Below are positions 2,389-42,848 of a stretch of 64,000 nucleotides of DNA, piece by piece. Source of the stretch: Escherichia coli (GTDB lineage: Bacteria > Pseudomonadota > Gammaproteobacteria > Enterobacterales > Enterobacteriaceae); assembly GCF_013122565.1 (NCBI RefSeq), contig NZ_CP053258.1; one strand, written 5' to 3'. The notes under the pieces were generated by a model. That model was given only the letters and a program-made list of their open reading frames with translations, had not been told where the DNA came from and did not search any database. Each line of letters opens with the position of its first letter. Position 1 is the first letter of the stretch. A program made the translations under genes and the position numbers.

Positions 2389-3108
2389 TTACTGAATTTC
2401 GGTGGTGCCGTTAATTTTAAACAGGATATTCACCACAATCCCACTGCCTGGCTTACCCGGCTCATAACGCCATCTGCGCATCGCATTTTTCACCTCACGC
2501 TCAAACATGTTCGCAGGCTTGGCTGAGAGGATTTGCACGTTATCCACGCGACCATCCGGCGTGACATCAAATTTAACTTTAACCTGCCCTTCAATGCGCA
2601 ATGCCTGTGCTCGTGCCGGATACTGCGGCTGATTACGGCTTAATGCGCGTGGTCCTGAAGCCACACTGGTAACCGGCTTGCTGGTTGCAGCCGTTGCCGT
2701 ACTTGATGTAGGGCGCGCGGGTGCCGTATTTTCAAACGGTGATGCCGGACGCGACTCTACGGGTTTGACATCGCGTTTTGGCTGCTCCTGTACCTTTTTC
2801 ACCGGCTTCGGTTTTGGCTTAGGTTTCGGCTTCGGCTTTTCAATGACCACCGGTGCTTCTTTTGGCGGTTCAGGAATCGGCTCAGGTTCCGGTTCTGGCT
2901 CTACCACCGGCTCCGGTGGCGGCTGAACGGCTTGTGGCGGTTCGAGATCAGCAGGCGCAACCATCGTAACAGAAATCGGCTGCGCAGGCGCAGGTAGTTC
3001 AATAACCTGATGTACCGAGGTATAGAGCAGACCCGCCACAACAGCACCATGAATGCAGACCGAAAGTAACGTCGGCCAGGGGAAGCGGCGAGGTAAATCA
3101 AGGGTCAT
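2389..3108 (-). CDS. tonB: TonB energy transducer (239 aa; internal start used, track ORF extends to 3159)
   Basis: [18 protein letters not shown]-terminus, (EP)n and (KP)n proline-rich repeats, C-terminal TonB domain. Confidence 0.95.
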
Positions 3109-3331
3109 TGAAGTCATAATCATTTCAGCAGAAAAACCAGGCCTCGATTTTAAATGCAAATAGCAATCATATTCAATAAGGCAAGACGATCAGGATCAGT
3201 GAAAATGTCATTTTTGGCGTAATTGACCTTACTTTATGCATGGTCTTAACAAAGACATCATCTTTCCGTTGCAGATCTTCGCCCTTTCAAATAACGTACT
3301 TTACAACTTTCCCGAACAAGGAGTTGTGCCC

Positions 3332-3628
3332 GTGTTGTATGTTATTTACGCTCAAGACAAAGCTGATAGCCTCGAAAAACGCCTTTCCGTTCGTCCGGCA
3401 CATTTAGCACGTTTACAGTTACTGCATGATGAAGGTCGTTTGTTGACAGCTGGTCCAATGCCAGCGGTAGACAGTAACGATCCAGGGGCTGCGGGATTTA
3501 CTGGCTCAACCGTTATTGCTGAATTTGAATCGCTGGAAGCAGCTCAGGCCTGGGCCGATGCTGACCCGTACGTAGCGGCAGGTGTCTATGAACACGTTTC
3601 AGTGAAACCATTTAAGAAAGTGTTCTGA
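3332..3628 (+). CDS. yciI: YciI-family protein (98 aa, GTG start preceded by AAGGAG)
   Basis: [18 protein letters not shown] sequence recognised as YciI; SD aaggag 9 nt upstream of GTG at 3332. Confidence 0.9.
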
Positions 3629-3650
3629 GTAGAGATCCAATATTTAAGGG

Positions 3651-3678
3651 CACGGTTTTTGCAACCGTGTTCTTGTTT
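3651..3678 (+). terminator. Rho-independent terminator after yciI
   Basis: Hairpin cacggtt-tttgc-aaccgtg followed by ttcttgttt. Confidence 0.7.
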
Positions 3679-3927
3679 GGCCTTTCCTTATAGCCGGTCA
3701 GTGCATTCACCACCACAAGCAGATAATAACTTTATCTGTATTTCTTTATATGATGTGAGCATATTCAGGAAAAATGACCTTTCCTGAGGTACAGTTGCTC
3801 GCTCAAAACCTTTGATTACTGCGGATAAAGTCATCTACTATTGTTTAACACATTCACGCGCTGCATGTATGTTCGGAAAATGTGCACGCTAAGATAATTA
3901 AACAAAATTGTGGTTACAGAGGTATCA

Positions 3928-5181
3928 GTGAGTCACTGGGCTACATTCAAACAAACAGCAACAAATTTATGGGTGACCCTACGGCACGACATGCTCGCGC
4001 TGGCCGTCTTTTTAAATGGATTGCTTATTTTTAAAACAATCTATGGTATGTCGGTCAATTTGCTTGATATTTTCCATATTAAAGCATTTTCAGAGCTGGA
4101 TCTCTCCTTGCTGGCAAACGCCCCACTATTTATGCTCGGCGTATTTCTTGTCCTGAACTCCATTGGCTTACTGTTCCGGGCAAAGCTCGCATGGGCAATC
4201 AGTATCATTTTGTTGTTGATAGCGCTAATTTACACCCTGCATTTTTATCCGTGGCTGAAATTCAGTATTGGATTTTGCATTTTTACGCTGGTGTTTTTGC
4301 TGATACTGCGCAAAGACTTCTCCCACAGTAGCGCCGCAGCCGGGACAATTTTCGCATTTATTAGTTTCACGACGTTACTGTTTTACTCCACCTACGGTGC
4401 GCTTTATTTAAGCGAAGGTTTTAATCCGCGAATAGAAAGTTTGATGACCGCGTTCTATTTTTCAATAGAAACCATGTCAACCGTCGGCTATGGCGATATT
4501 GTCCCTGTTTCTGAGTCAGCACGATTGTTCACTATTTCGGTCATTATTTCCGGCATTACCGTTTTTGCCACCTCTATGACCTCAATTTTTGGTCCGCTTA
4601 TCCGCGGGGGATTCAACAAACTTGTAAAAGGAAACAATCATACAATGCATCGTAAAGATCATTTTATTGTTTGCGGGCATTCGATTCTCGCCATCAATAC
4701 GATTCTGCAACTGAATCAACGCGGACAAAACGTAACGGTTATCAGCAACTTGCCTGAAGATGATATCAAGCAACTTGAGCAACGCTTAGGCGATAACGCT
4801 GATGTTATCCCCGGTGACAGTAATGACAGTTCAGTATTAAAGAAAGCGGGAATCGATCGTTGCCGGGCCATTCTGGCGCTGAGTGATAACGATGCAGATA
4901 ACGCGTTTGTTGTACTCTCGGCAAAAGATATGAGCAGTGATGTTAAAACAGTTCTCGCCGTCAGTGATAGCAAAAACCTGAATAAGATTAAGATGGTACA
5001 TCCGGATATCATTCTCTCACCGCAACTGTTTGGCAGCGAAATTCTGGCGCGAGTTTTAAATGGTGAAGAGATTAATAATGATATGCTCGTTTCAATGTTG
5101 TTGAACTCCGGTCATGGCATTTTCAGCGATAACGATGAACAAGAAACGAAAGCTGACAGTAAAGAATCGGCGCAAAAATAG
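3928..5181 (+). CDS. kch: Kch potassium channel homologue (417 aa, GTG start; track ORF begins at 3910)
   Basis: TM core with pore signature TVGYGD and C-terminal RCK/TrkA-like domain; sequence recognised as Kch. Confidence 0.93.
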   Translation: MSHWATFKQTATNLWVTLRHDMLALAVFLNGLLIFKTIYGMSVNLLDIFHIKAFSELDLSLLANAPLFMLGVFLVLNSIGLLFRAKLAWAISIILLLIALIYTLHFYPWLKFSIGFCIFTLVFLLILRKDFSHSSAAAGTIFAFISFTTLLFYSTYGALYLSEGFNPRIESLMTAFYFSIETMSTVGYGDIVPVSESARLFTISVIISGITVFATSMTSIFGPLIRGGFNKLVKGNNHTMHRKDHFIVCGHSILAINTILQLNQRGQNVTVISNLPEDDIKQLEQRLGDNADVIPGDSNDSSVLKKAGIDRCRAILALSDNDADNAFVVLSAKDMSSDVKTVLAVSDSKNLNKIKMVHPDIILSPQLFGSEILARVLNGEEINNDMLVSMLLNSGHGIFSDNDEQETKADSKESAQK

Positions 5182-5235
5182 AGTTTAAAGACGGAAGAGT
5201 AAACTTATTGGGCACCGCAATGGTGCCCAGTACAT

Positions 5236-5409
5236 TTAGATATTGTAGATCGCAAACAATAACGAGTTACGCTGTTTGTTTAGAATGCACTTCCTGATGC
5301 TGTGGATACGCATATTTCGGCGCGATTGCCCCTCAAGCCAACGCGATTTACGTCGGCTAGCCTGACGCTGCATGCGCCAGCGCCCCACTTCCGTTCTACT
5401 CCGCTTCAT
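5236..5409 (-). CDS. yciY: Small basic protein (57 aa), YciY-like
   Basis: ATG at 5409; MKRSRTEVGRWRMQRQASRRK arginine-rich product; I recall a small annotated gene at this position between cls and kch in K-12 but cannot verify. Confidence 0.4.
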   Translation of the reverse strand: MKRSRTEVGRWRMQRQASRRKSRWLEGQSRRNMRIHSIRKCILNKQRNSLLFAIYNI

Positions 5410-5551
5410 GTTAACTACTCTATGCAATAACAGAATGGTCATTATACCCCCGCCCCCGACGCTGACCAGTGCTTTTCCCGCGTTTTTATTTGCCAGATGA
5501 ATCCATATGCGTAAACTCATAACAATGCGCTTTCAAAAGGATTTCTAATCT

Positions 5552-7376
<1,825 letters not shown>

Positions 7377-7405
7377 CGCTTGCAATCGGATGTGACGCAG
7401 CTGCG

Positions 7406-8275
7406 TCACATCCGCTCTTCATTTTCCACATCTACCTTTTCCCTCCCCAGTTCATTGCCACAAATACGACAATACTTCGCATCCTGTGCATGATTTTGGG
7501 TATTGCATTTAGGACAACAGAGAAGTTTTTTAGTCTGTTCAAGTTCGCTGGTGAGTTGCGCAGTAATAATCCCCGTCGGAATTGCAATGACTGAGTAGCC
7601 AATTAAGATTAATACTGAGGCCACCATCCTTCCTGCCTCTGTATGCGGCGTAATATCCCCATATCCAACGGTAGTCACAGTCACTATCGCCCAGTAAACC
7701 GCTGTACCCAACGAGTTAAATCCGTTTGATGCGCCTTCTATAGCGTACATTAACGCCCCAGCGACGATCATCACAATTGCAATAAATGCATAAAAAAGAA
7801 TCAACTGATGTCGGGCATTTTTTATCGCCCGCCATAAACTGTTTAAGGCAGGCATAAAGCGAAGCAGGCGCAAAATTCGCAACGCGCGAATAGCTCTCAT
7901 CGCTCGCCAGGCAAATAAATAAGTAAAACCAATTTCAGGCCATAGCCACATAACATACAGCGGCAAAATGGTGGTCAGATCGATAATTCCCCAAAAGCTA
8001 AAAACATAACTTACCGGATTCGGCCAGCTTAATATCCGCAGGAAATACTCGATGGTGAAAATTAAGGTAAAGAAGAGTTCCACCCAGACAAAGATATGCC
8101 ATTCGTCGTAGGTTAACTGAAATTGCGATCCAATACCGGATTCTATGAAAACAACGCCAACACTTAACAATGCGAGAAAACCAAACAGCGCCTCGCATCG
8201 TCTACCGGTTTTTGTATGCCGATCAAAAAGAAAATGATAAAACCGCTGACGATAGCCTGAAAGTTGTCCTGTCAC
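7406..8275 (-). CDS. Kv-type voltage-gated potassium channel (6 TM, charged S4, TVGYGD pore) with C-terminal zinc-ribbon tail
   Basis: 289-aa ORF; S4 motif RAMRAIRALRILRLLR with R every third residue; selectivity filter TVGYGD; C-terminal CPKC-x12-CRIC; GGGAGG SD 5 nt upstream of GTG start. Confidence 0.8.
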   Translation of the reverse strand: MTGQLSGYRQRFYHFLFDRHTKTGRRCEALFGFLALLSVGVVFIESGIGSQFQLTYDEWHIFVWVELFFTLIFTIEYFLRILSWPNPVSYVFSFWGIIDLTTILPLYVMWLWPEIGFTYLFAWRAMRAIRALRILRLLRFMPALNSLWRAIKNARHQLILFYAFIAIVMIVAGALMYAIEGASNGFNSLGTAVYWAIVTVTTVGYGDITPHTEAGRMVASVLILIGYSVIAIPTGIITAQLTSELEQTKKLLCCPKCNTQNHAQDAKYCRICGNELGREKVDVENEERM

Positions 8276-8290
8276 CTGCGCCTCCCATGA

Positions 8291-8317
8291 AAAAGGGCCG
8301 GCAATTGACCAGCCCTT
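8291..8317 (-). terminator. Rho-independent terminator of the opp operon
   Basis: On minus strand GGGCUGG-ucaauug-CCGGCCC stem-loop followed by UUUUU, beginning 8 nt after the oppF stop. Confidence 0.7.
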
Positions 8318-8324
8318 AACCGCT

Positions 8325-9329
8325 TTATAACGGATCGACTTTCAGGCAAGAAACGGCGTGTCTGAAACTCCCCTCCAGCACAGGACGTGTTTTGGCACAC
8401 TCCGGACCGGCAATCGGGCAACGGGTACGGAAAACACAACCGGAAGGCGGGTTGATCGGCGACGGTAATTCCCCTTCCAGTAACTGGATGGTTTTGTTCT
8501 TCTCCAGATCCGGATCAGGTATGGGGACTGCCGACATCAATGCCCGGGTGTAAGGATGTAGTGGATTGTGGTAGACCTCATCATAGGTCCCCAGTTCTAC
8601 CGCATGGCCGAGATACATCACTAACACACGATCGGAAATGTGTTTTACCACGGCCAGGTCGTGAGCGATAAAAATTAATGACAATCCCATCTCACGTTGC
8701 AACTGCTGGAGCAGGTTGACCACCTGCGCCTGAATTGACACGTCCAGCGCCGACACCGGCTCATCACAGATAATCAGCTTCGGTTCAAGAATAAGAGCAC
8801 GAGCAATCCCGATACGCTGGCACTGCCCACCGGAAAATTCATGCGGATAGCGGTTAATCAGGTTAGGCAATAACCCGACTTTCAGCATCATCGCCTTCAC
8901 GCGCTCGCGAACTTCCTGGCGTGACATTTTCGGATGATAGGTACGCAGCGGTTCAGCGATAATCTCACCGATGGTCATACGCGGGTTTAGTGATGCTAAC
9001 GGATCCTGGAAAATCATCTGAATATCACTGCGAACGGCACGCCATTCATCGGGCTTCATGCCCAGCAACTCTTTACCTAACCAAGCAACATGACCGTCGG
9101 TCGCCTTGACCAAACCGATGATGGCGCGAGCAAAGGTGGACTTACCGCATCCCGATTCCCCTACCACACCTAATGTTTCCCCTTCATACAGGCGAAGAGT
9201 GACACCATCGACGGCTTTGAGCGTTTTCGGCGGTTGCCAGAACCACTGCTTGCCATCTTTGATTTCAAAGTGCACTTTTAGATCGGCGATTTCGAGGAGG
9301 ACTTTTCTTCCTTCGGTTACAGCATTCAT
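8325..9329 (-). CDS. oppF: Oligopeptide ABC transporter ATP-binding protein OppF
   Basis: 334-aa ORF with Walker A GESGCGKST and ABC signature LSGGQCQR. Confidence 0.96.
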   Translation of the reverse strand: MNAVTEGRKVLLEIADLKVHFEIKDGKQWFWQPPKTLKAVDGVTLRLYEGETLGVVGESGCGKSTFARAIIGLVKATDGHVAWLGKELLGMKPDEWRAVRSDIQMIFQDPLASLNPRMTIGEIIAEPLRTYHPKMSRQEVRERVKAMMLKVGLLPNLINRYPHEFSGGQCQRIGIARALILEPKLIICDEPVSALDVSIQAQVVNLLQQLQREMGLSLIFIAHDLAVVKHISDRVLVMYLGHAVELGTYDEVYHNPLHPYTRALMSAVPIPDPDLEKNKTIQLLEGELPSPINPPSGCVFRTRCPIAGPECAKTRPVLEGSFRHAVSCLKVDPL

Positions 9330-10339
9330 AACAGTTCCTCCACCGGTTTAAAGCAAGCACGCAGACGGCCAGGCGTAAACTCTTCCAGTGGCGGTGCGCT
9401 ACTACAAATTTCCATCGCATGTGGACAACGTGGCTGGAACGGGCAACCTTTCGGTAATCGCAGCAAGTTTGGTGGATTACCCGGGATGGTCAACATTGTT
9501 TCACCTTCCGCATCGAGACGCGGCACCGCGTTGAGCAAACCGATAGAATAAGGATGAACGGGTTGATAAAAGACATCGCGCGCGTTGCCATATTCCATCG
9601 TGCGCCCGGCATACATTACCAGCACTTTGTCGCAGATCCCCGCCACCACGCCAAGATCGTGGGTGATCATTATGATGGCGGTATTAAATTCCCGCTTCAG
9701 TTCATTCAATAGCGTCATGATCTGCGCCTGTACGGTGACGTCCAGCGCAGTAGTGGGTTCATCCGCAATCAGCAGCTTAGGTCGACATAGCAATGCCATC
9801 GCAATCATGACTCGCTGACGCATGCCGCCAGAAAATTCGTGCGGGTACATTTTCATGCGTTTACGCGCTTCCGGCATTTTTACCGCATCGAGCATCCGCA
9901 CCGACTCTTCAAACGCCTCAGCTTTGCTCATGTTCTTATGCAGCATCAGCACTTCCATTAACTGCTCACCGACACGCATATAGGGATTCAACGAAGTCAT
10001 TGGGTCCTGAAAAATCATTGAGATTTGTTCAGCGCGCAGTTTATTGAGTTCATGCTCTGGCAAATTGAGGATTTCACGCCCATTGAAGGTTGCCGAACCG
10101 CCAATACGTCCGTTGGCAGCCAACAGGCCCATCAACGCAAATGCAGTTTGCGATTTACCCGAACCAGACTCACCTACAATGCCCAACGTTTCTCCGGCTC
10201 GTAGGGAAAAATTCAAATCATTGACCGCCGTGACGTCGCCGTCCGGGGTACTAAAGGTGACACGCAAATCTTTCACGTTCAGCAGTGCGTCAGCCTGTTG
10301 TTGTGCGAGCGGCACAGTTGCAGTTTCAATTACGCTCAT
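9326..10339 (-). CDS. oppD: Oligopeptide ABC transporter ATP-binding protein OppD
   Basis: 337-aa ORF with Walker A GESGSGKSQ and ABC signature FSGGMRQR; 4-bp overlap with oppF. Confidence 0.96.
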   Translation of the reverse strand: MSVIETATVPLAQQQADALLNVKDLRVTFSTPDGDVTAVNDLNFSLRAGETLGIVGESGSGKSQTAFALMGLLAANGRIGGSATFNGREILNLPEHELNKLRAEQISMIFQDPMTSLNPYMRVGEQLMEVLMLHKNMSKAEAFEESVRMLDAVKMPEARKRMKMYPHEFSGGMRQRVMIAMALLCRPKLLIADEPTTALDVTVQAQIMTLLNELKREFNTAIIMITHDLGVVAGICDKVLVMYAGRTMEYGNARDVFYQPVHPYSIGLLNAVPRLDAEGETMLTIPGNPPNLLRLPKGCPFQPRCPHAMEICSSAPPLEEFTPGRLRACFKPVEELL

Positions 10340-10350
10340 GGCTGCACTCC

Positions 10351-11259
10351 TTAACGATCTTTCGGGTCGAGGGCATCACGCAAGCCATCGCCGATAAAGT
10401 TGAAACAAAACAGCGTCACCACGAGGAATCCCGCTGGGAACAACAGTAACCATGGAGAGACTTCCATCGAGTTCGCGCCATCACTCAGCAATGCACCCCA
10501 GCTGCTTAACGGCTCTTGCGTACCCAACCCCAGAAAGCTAAGGAAAGATTCAAAGAGGATCATGCTGGGCACCAGAAGTGATGCGTAGACCACCACCACA
10601 CCGAGTACATTCGGCACAATGTGGCGAATAACAATGCCCGACGTCGATACACCGCCAACTTGTGCCGCCTCAATAAACTCTTTGCGCTTCAGACTCAGGG
10701 TTTGCCCACGCACAATACGAGCCATATCCAGCCAGGAAACCATGCCTATCGCCACGAAAATCAGCAGGATGTTTTGACCGAAAAAGGTCACCAGCAAAAT
10801 GACGAAGAACATGAATGGGAAGGAGTTGAGGATTTCCAGCAGACGCATCATTACCGAATCCACTTTACCGCCCAGATAACCGGAAAGCGAACCATAAAGT
10901 GTCCCGACGACCACTGCCACCAGTGCCGCAGCAACACCAACCATGAGTGAGATACGCCCGCCAATCGCAACGCGCACAAGCAGGTCGCGACCGGATGAGT
11001 CAGTACCAAAGTAGTGACCGGACTCCATATCCGGGGCGCTGGACATCATCGCCCAGTCAGTATCATCATAGGCAAACTGCGAAAGCATCGGTGCCAGGAT
11101 TACAAATAACGCGATCAGCACCAGCACTATCAGACTGGCAACGGCCGCACGGTTATGCATAAAACGTCGACGTGCGTCCTGCCACAAGCTGCGCCCTTCG
11201 ACCTCCAGCTTTTCACTGAAATTTTCCAGCGTCTCGCTGTTTTTCTTACTTAACATCAT
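10351..11259 (-). CDS. oppC: Oligopeptide ABC transporter permease OppC
   Basis: 302-aa multi-TM permease; operon context. Confidence 0.95.
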   Translation of the reverse strand: MMLSKKNSETLENFSEKLEVEGRSLWQDARRRFMHNRAAVASLIVLVLIALFVILAPMLSQFAYDDTDWAMMSSAPDMESGHYFGTDSSGRDLLVRVAIGGRISLMVGVAAALVAVVVGTLYGSLSGYLGGKVDSVMMRLLEILNSFPFMFFVILLVTFFGQNILLIFVAIGMVSWLDMARIVRGQTLSLKRKEFIEAAQVGGVSTSGIVIRHIVPNVLGVVVVYASLLVPSMILFESFLSFLGLGTQEPLSSWGALLSDGANSMEVSPWLLLFPAGFLVVTLFCFNFIGDGLRDALDPKDR

Positions 11260-11273
11260 CGCGAGCTCCAGTA

Positions 11274-12194
11274 TCAGTAACGGATTTTCGGGTCGATAAC
11301 CGCATATAGCACATCGACAATGGCATTAAACAAAATGGTTAACGCGCCAACCAGAATGGTCAGACTTAACACTAAGGAATAGTCACGGTTCAATGCGCCA
11401 TTAACGAACAATTGTCCAATCCCCGGCAAACCATAAATGGTTTCGATGACCATAGAACCGGTAATAATGCCGACAAATGCGGGGCCCATATAGGAGAGCA
11501 CGGGTAACAGAGCAGGTTTTAAAGCGTGGCGTAAAATGATCCGCCGCATAGGTAACCCTTTCGCCCGGGCAGTGCGAATAAAGTTGGAGTGCAATACTTC
11601 AATCATAGAGCCACGGGTAATACGCGCAATACTGGCGATATAGGCGAGTGACAACGCCACCATTGGCAGTATCATGAATTTAAGCGCACCACCATTCCAG
11701 CCACCGCCCGGCAGCCAATGCAAAATGATCGCAAATATCATGACTAATAATGGCGCAACCACAAAACTGGGGATAACAACCCCGGTCATTGCCAGCCCCA
11801 TCACGGTATAGTCCCATTTGGTGTTTTGTTTTAATGCGGCAATAACGCCAGCACTAACACCCAGTATTACCGCAAGGAAAAATGCTGCGGCTCCCAGTTT
11901 GGCAGAAACGGGAAAACTGGATGCAACCAGGTCATTGACCGAATAATCTTTATATTTAAACGATGGACCGAAATCGCCATGCGCCAGTTGTTTCAGGTAG
12001 CTGAAATACTGTGTCATGATCGGATCATTAAGATGATATTTCGCTTCGATATTGGCCATTACTTCCGGTGGTAAAGTACGTTCGCCGGTAAAAGGGCTTC
12101 CCGGCGCGAGGCGCATCATAAAGAACGAAATAGTAATAAGAATAAATAGCGTCGGAATCGCTTCCAGACAGCGACGTAGAATAAATTTTAACAT
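11274..12194 (-). CDS. oppB: Oligopeptide ABC transporter permease OppB
   Basis: 306-aa multi-TM permease; operon context. Confidence 0.95.
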   Translation of the reverse strand: MLKFILRRCLEAIPTLFILITISFFMMRLAPGSPFTGERTLPPEVMANIEAKYHLNDPIMTQYFSYLKQLAHGDFGPSFKYKDYSVNDLVASSFPVSAKLGAAAFFLAVILGVSAGVIAALKQNTKWDYTVMGLAMTGVVIPSFVVAPLLVMIFAIILHWLPGGGWNGGALKFMILPMVALSLAYIASIARITRGSMIEVLHSNFIRTARAKGLPMRRIILRHALKPALLPVLSYMGPAFVGIITGSMVIETIYGLPGIGQLFVNGALNRDYSLVLSLTILVGALTILFNAIVDVLYAVIDPKIRY

Positions 12195-12279
12195 TGCCCT
12201 ACCTTCTGGCCTGTGCCTTCTGTAATGCGATAAAAATCAGACACCGTGGAGCAGGACACTCCTGCCCCACGTATTGCCA

Positions 12280-13911
12280 TTAGTGCTTCACAATGTACAT
12301 ATTCCGGGTGTAGGTATTATCCAGCGGATCTTTGCCGGTATAGCCACCAACCCACGGTTTCACCAGACGCGCATTCACGTAGTAATAAACAGGAACAATG
12401 GCCGAATCCTTATCCAGCTGTTGTTCTGCTTTAGTGTACAGAGCTGTGCGCTGCGCCTCGTCAGTCACTTTCAGCGTTTCCGCCATAATGCTGTCAAAGG
12501 CCGGGCTCTTATAATGCGCGGTATTCATCGAGCTGTTCGACAGCATGGTGTTCAGGAAGGAAGTTGGTTCGTTATAGTCTGCACACCAGCCTGCACGGGC
12601 CACATCAAAAGTGCCCTGATGACGGGTGTCGAGGAACGTTTTCCACTCCTGGTTAACCAGTTTGACGTTTACACCAATGTTTTTCTTCCACAATGAAGAG
12701 GCAGCAATCGCCAGCTTTTTATGCAGATCGGAGGTGTTATACAACAGGTTGATGGTCAACGGTTTGTCTGCGGTATAACCCGCTTCAGCCAGCAGTTTTT
12801 TTGCTTCTTCGTTACGTTTTTCCTGGCTCCAGCCAAACCATTCCGGCTGAGTCAATTTTGCGCCATCAGTATACGGTGGAGTGTAACCATAGGCGGGCAT
12901 GTCGCCCTGTGCTTTCACTTTATTAACAATGATATCGCGGTCCATACCCAGTTTCAGTGCGGTACGCACACGCACATCGTTGAATGGCGGTTTCTGGTTG
13001 TTAATTTCGTAATAGTAAGTGCACAGGTATGGATCAACGTGAACTTCGTCCGGGATCTCTTTTTTCAGCTTCTGGAACAATTCGATCGGCATATTGTTAT
13101 ACGTCATGTCGATTTCACCACTACGGTAGCGGTTGACATCAGTAACTTCAGAAGCAATAGGCAAATAGGTTACCTGGTTAATAACGGTTTTCGCGTTGTT
13201 CCAGTAGGTCGGGCTGCGTTCAAGAACGATTCGTTCGTTTACGACCCAATCTTTTAAGGTATAGGCACCGTTGGTGACGATATTACCAGGCTGGGTCCAT
13301 TTTTCGCCGAATTTCTCGATAGCGGCTTTTGGCACCGGTGAAGTTGATGGGTGAACAAGTAATTTATAGAAGTACGGAACGGGTTCACTTAAGGTGACTT
13401 CTAATGTGTGATCATCAATAGCTTTCACGCCGAGATCGGTAATCGGTTTTTTCCCTTCAAGAATTTCATCAATACCGGCGATATGCCCATATTGCAGATA
13501 ACTGGCATACGGAGAAGCGGTGTTTGGATCAACAGAACGTTGCCAGCTATACACAAAGTCTTGTGCTGTGACTGGCGTGCCATCAGACCATTTCGCATCT
13601 TTACGCAAATGGAAGGTCCAGACTTTCGCGTCTTTATTATCCCAGGATTCAGCGACGCCAGGTGCCGGATGACCGTCAAGGTCGCTGACCAGTAAGCCTT
13701 CAAACAGGTCCCGGCTGATATTAGACTCCGGCACACCTTCAATTTTGTGCGGATCTAATGACTGAACTTCTGAACCATTGTTACGTACCAGCGTTTGTTT
13801 TTCCGCCAGTGTGACGCCTGCGGGTACATCAGCTGCCAGCGCGACATTCCCTGCCATTAGCGCAGCCAGAACGCCAGCTGCTACTAAACTTCTCTTGGTG
13901 ATGTTGGTCAT
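12280..13911 (-). CDS. oppA: Periplasmic oligopeptide-binding protein OppA (543-aa precursor)
   Basis: MTNITKRSLVAAGVLAALMAGNVALA signal peptide then family 5 solute-binding domain; track ORF extends 15 codons upstream. Confidence 0.95.
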   Translation of the reverse strand: MTNITKRSLVAAGVLAALMAGNVALAADVPAGVTLAEKQTLVRNNGSEVQSLDPHKIEGVPESNISRDLFEGLLVSDLDGHPAPGVAESWDNKDAKVWTFHLRKDAKWSDGTPVTAQDFVYSWQRSVDPNTASPYASYLQYGHIAGIDEILEGKKPITDLGVKAIDDHTLEVTLSEPVPYFYKLLVHPSTSPVPKAAIEKFGEKWTQPGNIVTNGAYTLKDWVVNERIVLERSPTYWNNAKTVINQVTYLPIASEVTDVNRYRSGEIDMTYNNMPIELFQKLKKEIPDEVHVDPYLCTYYYEINNQKPPFNDVRVRTALKLGMDRDIIVNKVKAQGDMPAYGYTPPYTDGAKLTQPEWFGWSQEKRNEEAKKLLAEAGYTADKPLTINLLYNTSDLHKKLAIAASSLWKKNIGVNVKLVNQEWKTFLDTRHQGTFDVARAGWCADYNEPTSFLNTMLSNSSMNTAHYKSPAFDSIMAETLKVTDEAQRTALYTKAEQQLDKDSAIVPVYYYVNARLVKPWVGGYTGKDPLDNTYTRNMYIVKH

Positions 13912-14647
13912 TGTTTTTTGGACTCCCTCATTATAATTACTGGTAGTAACCAGCATGTGTAATCCCGGATTGGGACCCTGTACAGGCTCGGAGACTTTCT
14001 GCTGTCAGGTTACTTTATCGTTACGGATTGCTATCACCGACTTTATTTATTCTGGTGATTCAGACGATCACCTTATGTCGATTCGTACTGTGTCTCCCCT
14101 GTCGAGACACATTATTCTTTCGCGACGCTCTTTAATTGTTAATTATTCTCATTACCAATAAAAATCGTCTGGCGGTTGCCCGGAAAGTACCAAATGCGCT
14201 TCTTGCTCGCCAATACATTTTGCAAAATTGTTAAGCAATTCTCTTTTATTGACCGCAGCAGAATCTATAGCTTGCATCCATGTCTTAACAAACATCTTTC
14301 AATTCAATCAAATAGAGATTGGTTAAGCATGTCTATCTTTTCTGATTACAGTTCCCGTAGTGAAATGCACAATAATTTAACAATTGATTATTATTTAGCA
14401 CTTTCCTCTGCCAAAGGCAGTGGAATTACTAATATCATTTCAATTATTCTTCAGCAAGCCCAGGATTATGATGTGGTGAAAATAACATGATGGTGAGGAG
14501 AAGCAGTTAAGGAAATCCTTATAACTAACTGTAATTTGAGAAGAATATTTTTACCTATTCCTTTTGCTTTTGATAACTGCGTAGGAACAAAGTAAAAATA
14601 ATGACGAAGTAAACGGAGCATGGCGGCTCCGTTTCATTTGAAAGGAA

Positions 14648-18448: not shown

Positions 18449-18543
18449 TCAGTAACGCTGTCTGGCAACATAAACGGCCACTTCTGGGCAATGCCGATCA
18501 GTTAAGGATTAGTTGACCGATCCTTAAACTGCGGCACTATAAC

Positions 18544-18570
18544 GGCTTCCACAACAGGGAGCCGTTTTCT
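18544..18570 (+). terminator. Rho-independent terminator downstream of adhE
   Basis: Hairpin ggcttcc-acaaca-gggagcc followed by gttttctt. Confidence 0.65.
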
Positions 18571-18571
18571 T

Positions 18572-19468
18572 ATGCCACTTCTCAATGATCTGCTCGATTT
18601 CAGTGACCATCCGCTTATGCCTCCGCCCTCTGCACAACTGTTTGCAGAACACCTTCCCACCGAGTGGATACAACACTGCCTGACGCTTTCTGCTCATGCG
18701 ACCGTTCGCCGCCGTCGTTTACCGGGGGACATGGTTATCTGGATGGTGGTGCAATGAGCCAATTACCGATGTTGTTCGCCGTCTGAACCTGAGCGCGGAT
18801 GGCGAAGCGGGGATGAACCTGCTGGTCCGCAGCGCTGTCACCCAGGCGCGTCAGCGCGTGGGGGCCGCCCCGGTGGAATGGCTCTTCCGCCAGACCGCAC
18901 AGACAGGGGCGCGGAACGTTACCTGAAGGATGACTGGCACGGCCTGCAACTTTTTGCCATTGATGGCGCACAGTTCAGGACACCTGATGAACCCGAGCTG
19001 CGTGAATATTATGGGTCTGCCAACACATCCACTAAGCGGCAGAGCGCCTACCCGGTTATGCGTCTGGTGGCCTTAATGAACCTGGGAAGTCACATTCTGC
19101 TGAATGCCGTGACCGCACCTTACCGGCAGAGCGAAACTGTGCTGGCCCACTCCATGCTCGCCACCATCCCGGATAACTCTATTACGTTGTTTGATAAGCT
19201 TTTTTACAGCGAAGACCTGCTGCTGACGCTGAACCAGAAGGGTTGTAACCGCCACTGGCTACTGCCTGCGTGGAAGAATATCGCATCAGAAATGATAGTG
19301 CTGGGAAACACGGCGTCACCAGGGACCATCCCGAAACGACTGGAGCATCTTCGGGGTGCTCTGGAAGTGGTGTTCATAACAAAACGCCCCCGACCATCAA
19401 GGCCGAGGGCGGTTAAGATATCAAAAACCCGTTATCCTGTGAAACATAGTGCCGCTCCTCTTAAGTGA
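18572..19468 (+). pseudogene. insZ: Degenerate IS4-family transposase remnant (insZ-like), split over three reading frames
   Basis: Three consecutive plus-strand ORFs (61, 76 and 196 aa) in different frames whose products read as transposase fragments; position between adhE and tdk matches the K-12 insZ pseudogene as I recall it. Confidence 0.65.
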
Positions 19469-26268: not shown

Positions 26269-26353
<85 letters not shown>

Positions 26354-26530
26354 TCACTTTCAAAAGTTCCTGAACTCTCAAGCGAATCCGCAATTAAATA
26401 TTCTGCCCAAGCGGTGAAGGATGAGAAGATTCGACCAAGGTTCGACTCGAGCGTCAGCGAGAGAGCGTTGCCGCAGGCAACGACCCGAAGGGCGAAGCGC
26501 GCAGCGCTAGTAATCCTTCCCCCACCACCA
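26354..26530 (+). repeat. rtT-type repeat unit downstream of tRNA-Tyr, ending in a copy of the tRNA 3' end
   Basis: Unit ends with aatccttcccccaccacca, identical to the last 19 nt of the tRNA; the following ~50 bp re-start the unit in degenerate form. Confidence 0.75.
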
Positions 26531-42780: not shown

Positions 42781-42848
42781 AGAGAAAACCCCCGCACGTT
42801 GAGAGGTACAACCTGACAACAGAACGGGGGCTAATCTTGAACCAGAAC
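42781..42848 (-). ncRNA. rdl: Candidate Rdl-type antisense RNA (antitoxin of Ldr), ~66 nt; ends approximate
   Basis: Minus strand has -35 TTGTAA / 17 bp / -10 TATTCT, then a ~66-nt unit ending in CCCCCG...CGGGGG hairpin plus UUUUCUCUUU, placed antisense in the ldr leader. Confidence 0.45.

Follow-up and report, generated by a model that had tools for sequence, protein, structure and literature searches.

In a 64,000-nucleotide stretch of Escherichia coli DNA (contig NZ_CP053258.1; hereafter the window), the spacer between the stop codons of yciU and oppF, which spans exactly positions 7377-8324, contains a single long open reading frame (ORF) that encodes a predicted voltage-gated K+ (Kv) channel of 289 amino acids. 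Very probably, this ORF is the intact orthologue of a Kv gene that is ancestral to the Enterobacteriaceae, lies directly downstream of oppF and was removed by a single deletion of ~0.9 kb in the ancestry of almost all E. coli, with the window strain and a few others remaining undeleted. Rarity in E. coli combined with a low GC content need not mean that a gene was acquired horizontally, as a preliminary description of the window had proposed; here, the model organism would have deleted a gene that its whole family keeps.

The oppF-yciU slot in Escherichia coli and its relatives

The position of the gene was compared in a synteny scan with one genome per species, from which the best 80 Enterobacteriaceae loci (L008-L087) were taken. 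The slot between oppF and yciU held the channel gene in the same way in all 80 species-representative loci, the few incomplete cases being contig ends. The scanned loci included Klebsiella, Enterobacter, Citrobacter, Lelliottia, Yokenella and Salmonella enterica subsp. arizonae and diarizonae, and the order oppD-oppF-channel-yciU-cls was found in E. albertii, Kluyvera and Raoultella. The nearest protein clusters came from other E. coli, the cryptic Escherichia clades, E. fergusonii and E. albertii. In the window, the locus comprises the following features:

7406..8275, minus strand: channel ORF, with a GTG start at 8275-8273 and a TGA stop at 7408-7406 (Pfam Ion_trans and Ion_trans_2, Kv fold)
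8325..9329, minus strand: oppF, the last gene of oppABCDF and the same-strand upstream neighbour of the channel
7047..7376, plus strand: yciU (DUF440), the convergent downstream neighbour of the channel
7383..7405, no strand: intergenic part, after the yciU stop, of a ~0.9 kb block (~7383-8286) not found in 5,423 of the complete E. coli genomes; the channel ORF makes up the remainder of the block

Amino acid identity of the channel to the window protein was 80% in E. albertii, 71% in Kluyvera and 67% in Raoultella, and that of the flanks went from ~98% down to ~93%. When the window was compared with L010, a divergent Escherichia species representative labelled E. coli, DNA identity was ~91% in the channel and ~92% in the flanks, and the synonymous divergence (dS) of the channel, at 0.35, lay within the range of oppD, oppF, yciU and cls (0.29-0.51). 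The ratio of nonsynonymous to synonymous divergence (dN/dS) in the same comparison was 0.085 for the whole gene; by region, it was lowest in the pore (0.03) and higher in the sensor (0.12) and the tail (0.17). As judged from these substitution rates, the channel is shown to be under purifying selection and to co-diverge with its flanks. Given this co-divergence and the occupation of the same slot across the family, the absence from E. coli is the derived state and retention the rare one.

The lower GC content and the rare-codon usage that the preliminary description had noted were both borne out. The ORF has a GC content of 43.9% (43% at third codon positions) compared with 51-52% in oppF, oppD and cls, and the codons AGA, AGG, ATA, GGA, CTA and CGA occur 6.9 times per 100 codons, where the neighbouring genes have 0.9-3.8. 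The E. albertii allele has a GC content of 45%, and in Kluyvera and Raoultella the gene lies 3.5-7 points below the oppF of the same genome. As the low GC content is common to the orthologues, it is a property of the gene itself, being rich in membrane-protein sequence and poor in codon bias, and not a mark of foreign origin.

Within E. coli, the channel segment was found in only 3 of 5,426 complete genomes, at 99.9% identity; the carriers are strains PT62 and LP5-1, both from pigeons, and ET201 from a frog. The flanks of the segment matched 5,422 complete E. coli genomes at ~97-98%. The genomes without it are ~896 bp shorter at this point, and among the clean two-piece matches listed, each covers 1,905 bp instead of 2,801 bp. 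The gene is absent from K-12, as a comparison with E. coli genomes confirmed, and the spacer from oppF to yciU measures 52 bp in a K-12 derivative, in line with the tens of base pairs that the preliminary description had given for this strain. At the ~7383-8286 block, K-12 has a few unrelated bases instead and keeps, beside the deletion junction, the hairpin that follows oppF; retention of this conserved upstream element is expected if the channel gene was deleted. The absence in E. coli is therefore a derived state that apparently arose by one deletion, and the most economical reading is that ~0.9 kb was deleted early in E. coli and the undeleted allele survived at low frequency. We also considered whether the window strain might be a divergent or cryptic-clade Escherichia and rejected this, as it is ~98.7% identical to K-12 along 45 kb and its best matches over 40-44 kb, to ordinary E. 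coli, reach 98.9%. The haplotype block common to the window and PT62 carries the presence allele.

Two other histories were weighed against such an ancestral gene. A recent horizontal acquisition, in which a few E. coli received a foreign 0.95 kb cassette at the oppF-yciU junction, would account for the rarity of the gene in this species, for its GC deficit relative to the ~52% of the flanks and for its rare codons, which are 2-3 times more frequent. It fits poorly with the identical position in the 80 loci and the relatives in E. fergusonii, with a dS against L010 that is the same as in the flanking core genes, and with the equally low GC content of the E. albertii allele; K-12 moreover keeps the conserved upstream hairpin, as after a deletion. 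In addition, no integrase, insertion sequence (IS) element or tRNA target is annotated in the neighbourhood of the channel, and no direct repeats were found to bracket the segment. On the combined grounds of synteny, co-divergence, a low GC content common to the orthologues and the lack of mobility genes or bracketing repeats, we rejected the horizontal insertion proposed in the preliminary description as extremely unlikely. What stands of its view that the ~0.95 kb are accessory DNA is their rarity in E. coli; their acquisition does not, the segment being, on the evidence above, ancestral. The other history, which we judge improbable, is that E. coli lost the gene wholly and that a few lineages regained it, together with flanking DNA, by homologous recombination from a close Escherichia. 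Speaking for such a re-acquisition, the window and PT62 (L088) are 99.7-100% identical over ~9 kb (window ~5000-14000, from cls to oppA) and ~99% elsewhere, and divergence from K-12 peaks beside the gene, with identities of 92.9% at 8250-8500 and 96% at 8750-9000 and an average of ~98.7%. However, at ~98% the identity of the flanks to K-12 still falls within the range of the species, the local peak lies mostly in the hairpin and the spacer, with compensatory changes in the hairpin arms, and a deep-coalescing retained haplotype predicts the same pattern. Since no sampled donor comes closer than 93-94% in protein and ~91% in DNA, the values of the closest alleles from outside E. coli (L010/P0001 and the cryptic clades), and none of them fits, we gave this history low weight compared with retention of an ancestral gene.

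The second K+ channel gene of the locus has a different distribution. kch (3928-5181, plus strand) ends 2,224 bp from the channel ORF region, in agreement with the ~2.2 kb estimated from the sequence earlier. Among the loci compared, kch lies between yciI and yciY/cls only in two Escherichia loci, those of E. albertii and L010, while yciI directly follows cls in 40 other Enterobacteriaceae loci; the GC content of kch is 42.8%. With kch at this locus only in Escherichia and the Kv gene present family-wide, kch is the lineage-specific addition, so that Escherichia would have gained kch first and E. coli would have lost the Kv gene later.

Channel architecture and the zinc-ribbon tail

As predicted from its translation, the window ORF is a Kv-type (Shaker-like) channel homologue with six transmembrane (TM) helices, a full arginine ladder and a K+ selectivity filter. 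The protein matched Pfam Ion_trans (PF00520) over residues 30-247 (E=1.2e-31) and Ion_trans_2 (E=4.9e-18), and its best solved relatives by sequence were Kv4.2, the Kv1.2-2.1 chimera, Kv2.1, Kv1.3 and Shaker (E ~1e-20 to 1e-23), followed by KCNQ. A monomeric AlphaFold2 model, built from a 64-sequence alignment with a mean column identity of 34%, had a mean predicted local distance difference test score (pLDDT) of 88.7 and a predicted template modelling score of 0.71. Its helices at residues 22-51, 56-83, 94-111, 113-134, 155-180, 189-200 and 213-251 correspond to six TM helices and a pore helix (189-200), with an N-terminal amphipathic helix ahead of S1-S4 and a 17-residue S4-S5 linker helix at residues 137-153. 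Foldseek searches against the PDB returned Kv4.2, Kv1.2, Kv2.1, Kv3.1, Shaker and KCNQ at a probability of 1.0, with template modelling scores to Kv structures of ~0.5-0.64 when normalised to the query and up to 0.73 when normalised to the target. The profile search and the structure model, both suggested as checks in the preliminary description, hence agree with the full Kv architecture that it had assigned to the minus-strand ORF, whose coordinates, motifs and six TM helices were all recovered. The parts of the protein discussed below map to the window as follows:

7859..7906, minus strand: S4 voltage-sensor helix, R124-R139, with six arginines at every third position (translation, Kv4.2 alignment, orthologue conservation)
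7655..7672, minus strand: K+ selectivity filter T202-V-G-Y-G-D207 (translation and conservation)
7457..7516, minus strand: C-terminal Cys4 zinc ribbon C254-x2-C257-x11-C269-x2-C272-G273 (Pfam Zn_Ribbon_1, conservation, model)

The S4 helix, RAMRAIRALRILRLLR, carries arginines at positions 124, 127, 130, 133, 136 and 139, of which five are invariant in 23 enterobacterial orthologues and one is either arginine or lysine. In a HMMER alignment, these arginines are in register with the S4 of Kv4.2, which itself is without R1; we take the six to correspond to Shaker R1-R6 (R362...R377), the Kv4.2-to-Shaker numbering being textbook knowledge. Residues E66, F73, E76 and R80 in S2 and D99 in S3 align to their Kv4.2 equivalents, namely the phenylalanine and the acidic residues of the charge-transfer centre. 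All five show no or almost no variation in the 23 orthologues; in the 64-sequence alignment, F73 and D99 do not vary, and conservation of E66 and E76 is at least 90%. The filter TVGYGD (202-207) is invariant in the 23 orthologues, and across the 64 sequences all of its residues are invariant except Y205, for which conservation is at least 90%. In S6, G226 and P233-T-G235 are invariant or nearly so in the 23 orthologues, and largely also across the 64 sequences; P233-T-G235 aligns to the Kv 'PVP' motif and resembles the 'PAG' of KCNQ. The filter, the S6 helix and the arginines at every third position that had been read from the letters are thus present in the translation and aligned to Kv4.2.

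Shaker-type Kv channels (Kv1.2, Kv2.1, Kv4.2 and Shaker) have in common with the window channel six TM helices, the R1-R6 register, the charge-transfer centre, TVGYGD and a helical S4-S5 linker, and they are its best matches in both sequence and structure, yet with an identity of only ~25%. The window channel differs from them in being without the N-terminal T1 tetramerisation domain, in having P-T-G rather than P-V-P in S6 and in ending in a Cys4 zinc ribbon instead of a long eukaryotic tail. Its likeness to Kv7/KCNQ lies in the S6 P-x-G motif and in sequence and fold matches, and at least one source labels an orthologue as 'KQT family', apparently through a subsystem-style annotation; however, these matches are weaker than those to Kv1-Kv4, and the window channel is much shorter and has no calmodulin-binding C-terminal helices. 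KvAP (Aeropyrum pernix), KvLm (Listeria) and MVP resemble it as compact prokaryotic Kv channels with six TM helices and no T1 domain; a C-terminal zinc ribbon is not known from any of them. Unlike the window channel, KvLm has only three of eight sensor charges (PMC2151562). KvAP did not appear in the 60 best PDB matches by sequence. Membership of the MVP equivalog (NCBIfam NF040645) was rejected at 60.5 bits against a cut-off of 300, and that of the Kch equivalog (NF007828) at 51.4 bits against 425, with no TrkA_N match. Kch itself has a K+ pore with a TVGYGD-type filter and lies in the same chromosomal neighbourhood, but only 77 pore residues align to the window channel (42% identity), and it carries a TrkA_N/RCK domain and no zinc ribbon. 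The locus of the window accordingly holds two structurally different K+ channel homologues, as had been proposed. A role in anti-phage defence was likewise considered and dropped, as PADLOC models gave zero matches to the channel gene.

On the basis of these homologies, S5, the TVGYGD loop and S6 of four subunits would together build a K+-selective pore in the inner membrane, and each subunit would contribute an S1-S4 voltage sensor, whose six S4 arginines would move through the centre formed by F73, E76 and D99, with E66 on the outer side. This movement would pull the helical S4-S5 linker, the length of which suggests a domain-swapped arrangement as in Kv1-Kv7, and open the S6 gate at the G226 hinge and P233-T-G235. 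Upon depolarisation, the pore would thus open and K+ efflux would restore the membrane potential. The S6 helix would run ~15 residues into the cytoplasm and end in the Cys4 zinc ribbon.

In the structure model, the long S6 helix runs to residue 251 and is followed, after ~3 residues, by the ribbon (pLDDT ~88). The motif, C254-P-K-C257 and C269-R-I-C272, was as the preliminary description had given it, except that its spacing is 11 residues in the translation rather than 12. Although the match to Pfam PF13240 (Zn_Ribbon_1) over residues 254-276 is weak on its own (E=0.0014), C254, C257, C269 and C272 are invariant both in the 23 orthologues and in the 64 sequences, and G273 is invariant in the former and at least 90% conserved in the latter. 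Among the 23 orthologues, A266 is invariant and H262 at least 90% conserved, while residues between the conserved ribbon positions vary freely. By this pattern of conservation, the predicted Cys4 zinc-ribbon tail is genuine. As in PF13240 Zn_Ribbon_1/DZR-type ribbons, two CxxC knuckles lie 11 residues apart and the tail has the ending A-x-[YF]-C-x2-C-G; unlike other short ribbons, it is fused to the end of the S6 helix, and its single-sequence match is weak. When the tail alone was searched against the PDB, only chance-level matches to ribosomal zinc ribbons were obtained (E at least 0.07).

An exhaustive search of 1.84 billion cluster representatives (50% identity) returned 25,341 relatives of the channel at E<1e-3. 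A T[VIL]G[YF]GD filter was present in 126 of the 150 best, and 100 of these 126 also had CxxC-x(6-25)-CxxC ~45 residues past the filter, most often in the form C-x2-C-x4-H-x3-A-x-[YF]-C-x2-C; ~20% of the close relatives with a canonical filter have no ribbon. Members of the family occur in Siccibacter, Sinomicrobium (Bacteroidota), Planctomycetaceae/Pirellulaceae (Planctomycetota) and the archaeon Methanolobus. With a Kv channel and a Cys4 ribbon combined in 100 of the 150 best representatives, archaea included, the architecture is widespread and not an oddity of the oppF-yciU locus. The channel belongs to an uncharacterised Kv subfamily whose gene is already annotated and, in enterobacteria, family-wide: a protein identical to that of the window is listed in RefSeq as WP_171459460.1, "ion transporter". 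The earlier statement that no named, characterised family could be assigned holds as far as characterised families are concerned, but not for the gene as such, given this annotation and the abundance of the architecture in databases. Our literature search, which covered papers other than subscription-only ones, found none on Kv channels with a zinc ribbon or on the oppF-yciU polymorphism.

The ribbon is most likely a small structural zinc knuckle placed right beneath the gate, where it would aid assembly or stability or have a part in regulation; that it regulates the channel by way of redox state, zinc or a partner protein is conceivable, but nothing supports it. Distant family members have no neighbouring gene in common, in line with a channel that works as a stand-alone unit. 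The ribbon lies a fixed ~15 residues beneath the S6 bundle crossing, and its conservation extends from Enterobacteriaceae to Planctomycetota, Bacteroidota and methanogenic archaea. One could speculate, with rather little confidence, that it acts as a gating module in which zinc release or thiol oxidation would couple the redox or metal state to a Shaker-type voltage-gated pore; if true, this would be an undescribed mode of Kv channel regulation. In a 3.8-Mb metagenomic contig (L093), an AhpC/Redoxin-family gene comes after a Kv gene with a zinc ribbon (3001-3864), and another Ion_trans gene (4790-5593) lies 1 kb away; one such case does not speak for a link to redox state.

Enterobacteria other than E. 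coli thus carry a compact predicted channel with the complete Shaker sensor charge set and a zinc ribbon, which could serve as a convenient bacterial model for canonical Kv gating. Work on membrane-potential dynamics in E. coli has focused on Kch, and the channel described here is relevant to such work in bacteria, with K-12, which is naturally without the gene, as a ready null background.

Expression layout, alleles and alternative readings

The sequences around the two ends of the gene contain the following elements:

8281..8286, minus strand: Shine-Dalgarno sequence GGGAGG, 5 nt before the GTG start (sequence)
8290..8318, minus strand: oppF intrinsic terminator, a GC-rich hairpin with a U-run, directly upstream of the channel start (folding and conservation)
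7387..7414, plus strand (terminator strand): perfect 14+14 nt palindrome, the cls-yciU terminator, overlapping the last channel codons and the stop
7426 (minus-strand codon 7424-7426), minus strand: stop-loss change, TAA to GAA, which adds ENEERM (comparison with PT62 and the common allele)

We compared 77 oppF-channel intergenic spacers extracted from the 80 loci. In ~70 of them the layout was the same, the oppF stop being followed by a GC-rich hairpin (9-10 bp) and its T-run, then by GAGG and the start codon; the start codon lies ~15-20 nt past the hairpin and is GTG in most loci, and GAGG is likewise found in most. The hairpin arms show compensatory changes across genera (GGGCTGAC, GGGCTGGC, GGCCGGC). 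In the window, the hairpin and its flanking pairs fold at -20 kcal/mol, which is no more stable than shuffled sequence (z = -0.9), as for an ordinary terminator. The spacer had no Rfam match to a structured RNA, and no sigma-70-like promoter was found on the coding strand upstream of the channel. The start ~15 nt past a terminator, the GTG codon, the rare codons and the lack of a recognisable promoter together suggest that the message arises only by read-through from opp; expression of the channel is probably very low by design. Read-through of the oppF terminator from oppABCDF would produce the channel message, and such low expression would suit a channel needed at few copies per cell.

Across 7377-8324, the window differs from the common 283-aa E. 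coli allele (P0272, present on 114 contigs and the same as WP_047667023.1 of PT62) by one base, at 7426, where the ancestral stop codon is lost. L010 also stops at the earlier position, and the ENEERM extension of the window allele is therefore derived; its new stop lies inside the yciU terminator palindrome. Some E. coli alleles (P0278, P0281 and P0283) carry C257Y, a substitution of one of the zinc-ligand cysteines, which may reflect relaxed constraint or an early decay of the gene in E. coli.

Such signs raise the question of whether the gene is a decaying relic, one whose ORF remains open although it has ceased to function or to be expressed in E. coli, and which is heading for loss. Its loss from more than 99.9% of complete E. 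coli genomes, the C257Y alleles, the lost ancestral stop codon of the window allele and the combination of a GTG start, many rare codons and no promoter of its own could all be read in this way. We nevertheless hold this to be quite improbable, as the ORF has its full length with every functional residue intact and as dN/dS against L010 is 0.085 overall and 0.03 in the pore; the layout for weak expression is ancestral and conserved among species of which every one has kept the gene, and is thus not a sign of decay. A further alternative, unlikely though still to be reckoned with, keeps the fold and changes the gating: the channel could be activated by hyperpolarisation like MVP, or be controlled mainly through its ribbon (by redox state, zinc or a partner protein), voltage being no more than a modulator. 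The best NCBIfam match is indeed the MVP equivalog, and the conservation of the four cysteines, G273 and H262 from Enterobacteriaceae to archaea at a fixed spacing from S6 implies a selected function by the gate. On the other hand, the MVP match stays far below its cut-off, the complete Shaker-type charge set and the helical S4-S5 linker favour canonical gating, no neighbouring gene common to distant family members was found that could encode a conserved partner, and the close relatives that have a canonical filter and no ribbon speak against control by the ribbon.

Several observations weigh against our own reading of an intact, ancestral and depolarisation-activated channel. Compared with E. 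albertii, the dS of the channel is 1.7 and that of the flanks 0.76-1.04, which is not the equal divergence seen with L010, albeit by an imperfect clock; weak codon bias in the channel or recombination in the flanks may explain the higher value. We infer ion selectivity and voltage dependence, as well as zinc binding by the tail, from homology, and the literature search yielded no functional data for any member of the family. MVP of Methanocaldococcus has a similar S4 and opens on hyperpolarisation, which is why the polarity of gating is not readable from sequence. The terminator scan did not call the oppF hairpin, which we identified by folding and conservation. Finally, the near-total loss of the gene, the C257Y alleles and the mutated stop suggest that the channel is dispensable, at least in E. 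coli.

Other differences between the window and related genomes

Outside the channel locus, the alignments of the window to PT62 and K-12 break at 18523-19460, at ~26.3-26.6 kb and at ~33.8 kb. PT62 has an IS4-family pseudogene of different length and IS621 at such breaks, and K-12 has IS5 and IS2 near oppA; the insertion-sequence content thus differs between the three genomes. At 26269-26530, the window has one tRNA-Tyr gene and one RtT repeat, whereas K-12 and PT62 have two tRNA-Tyr genes, presumably tyrT/tyrV in K-12, and two to four RtT repeats; this difference reflects either the collapse of a tandem repeat or an assembly artefact. At 42783-42848 on the minus strand, Rfam identified a single rdlD antitoxin RNA, corresponding to one Ldr/Rdl unit in the window, where PT62 has two Ldr genes and K-12 three.

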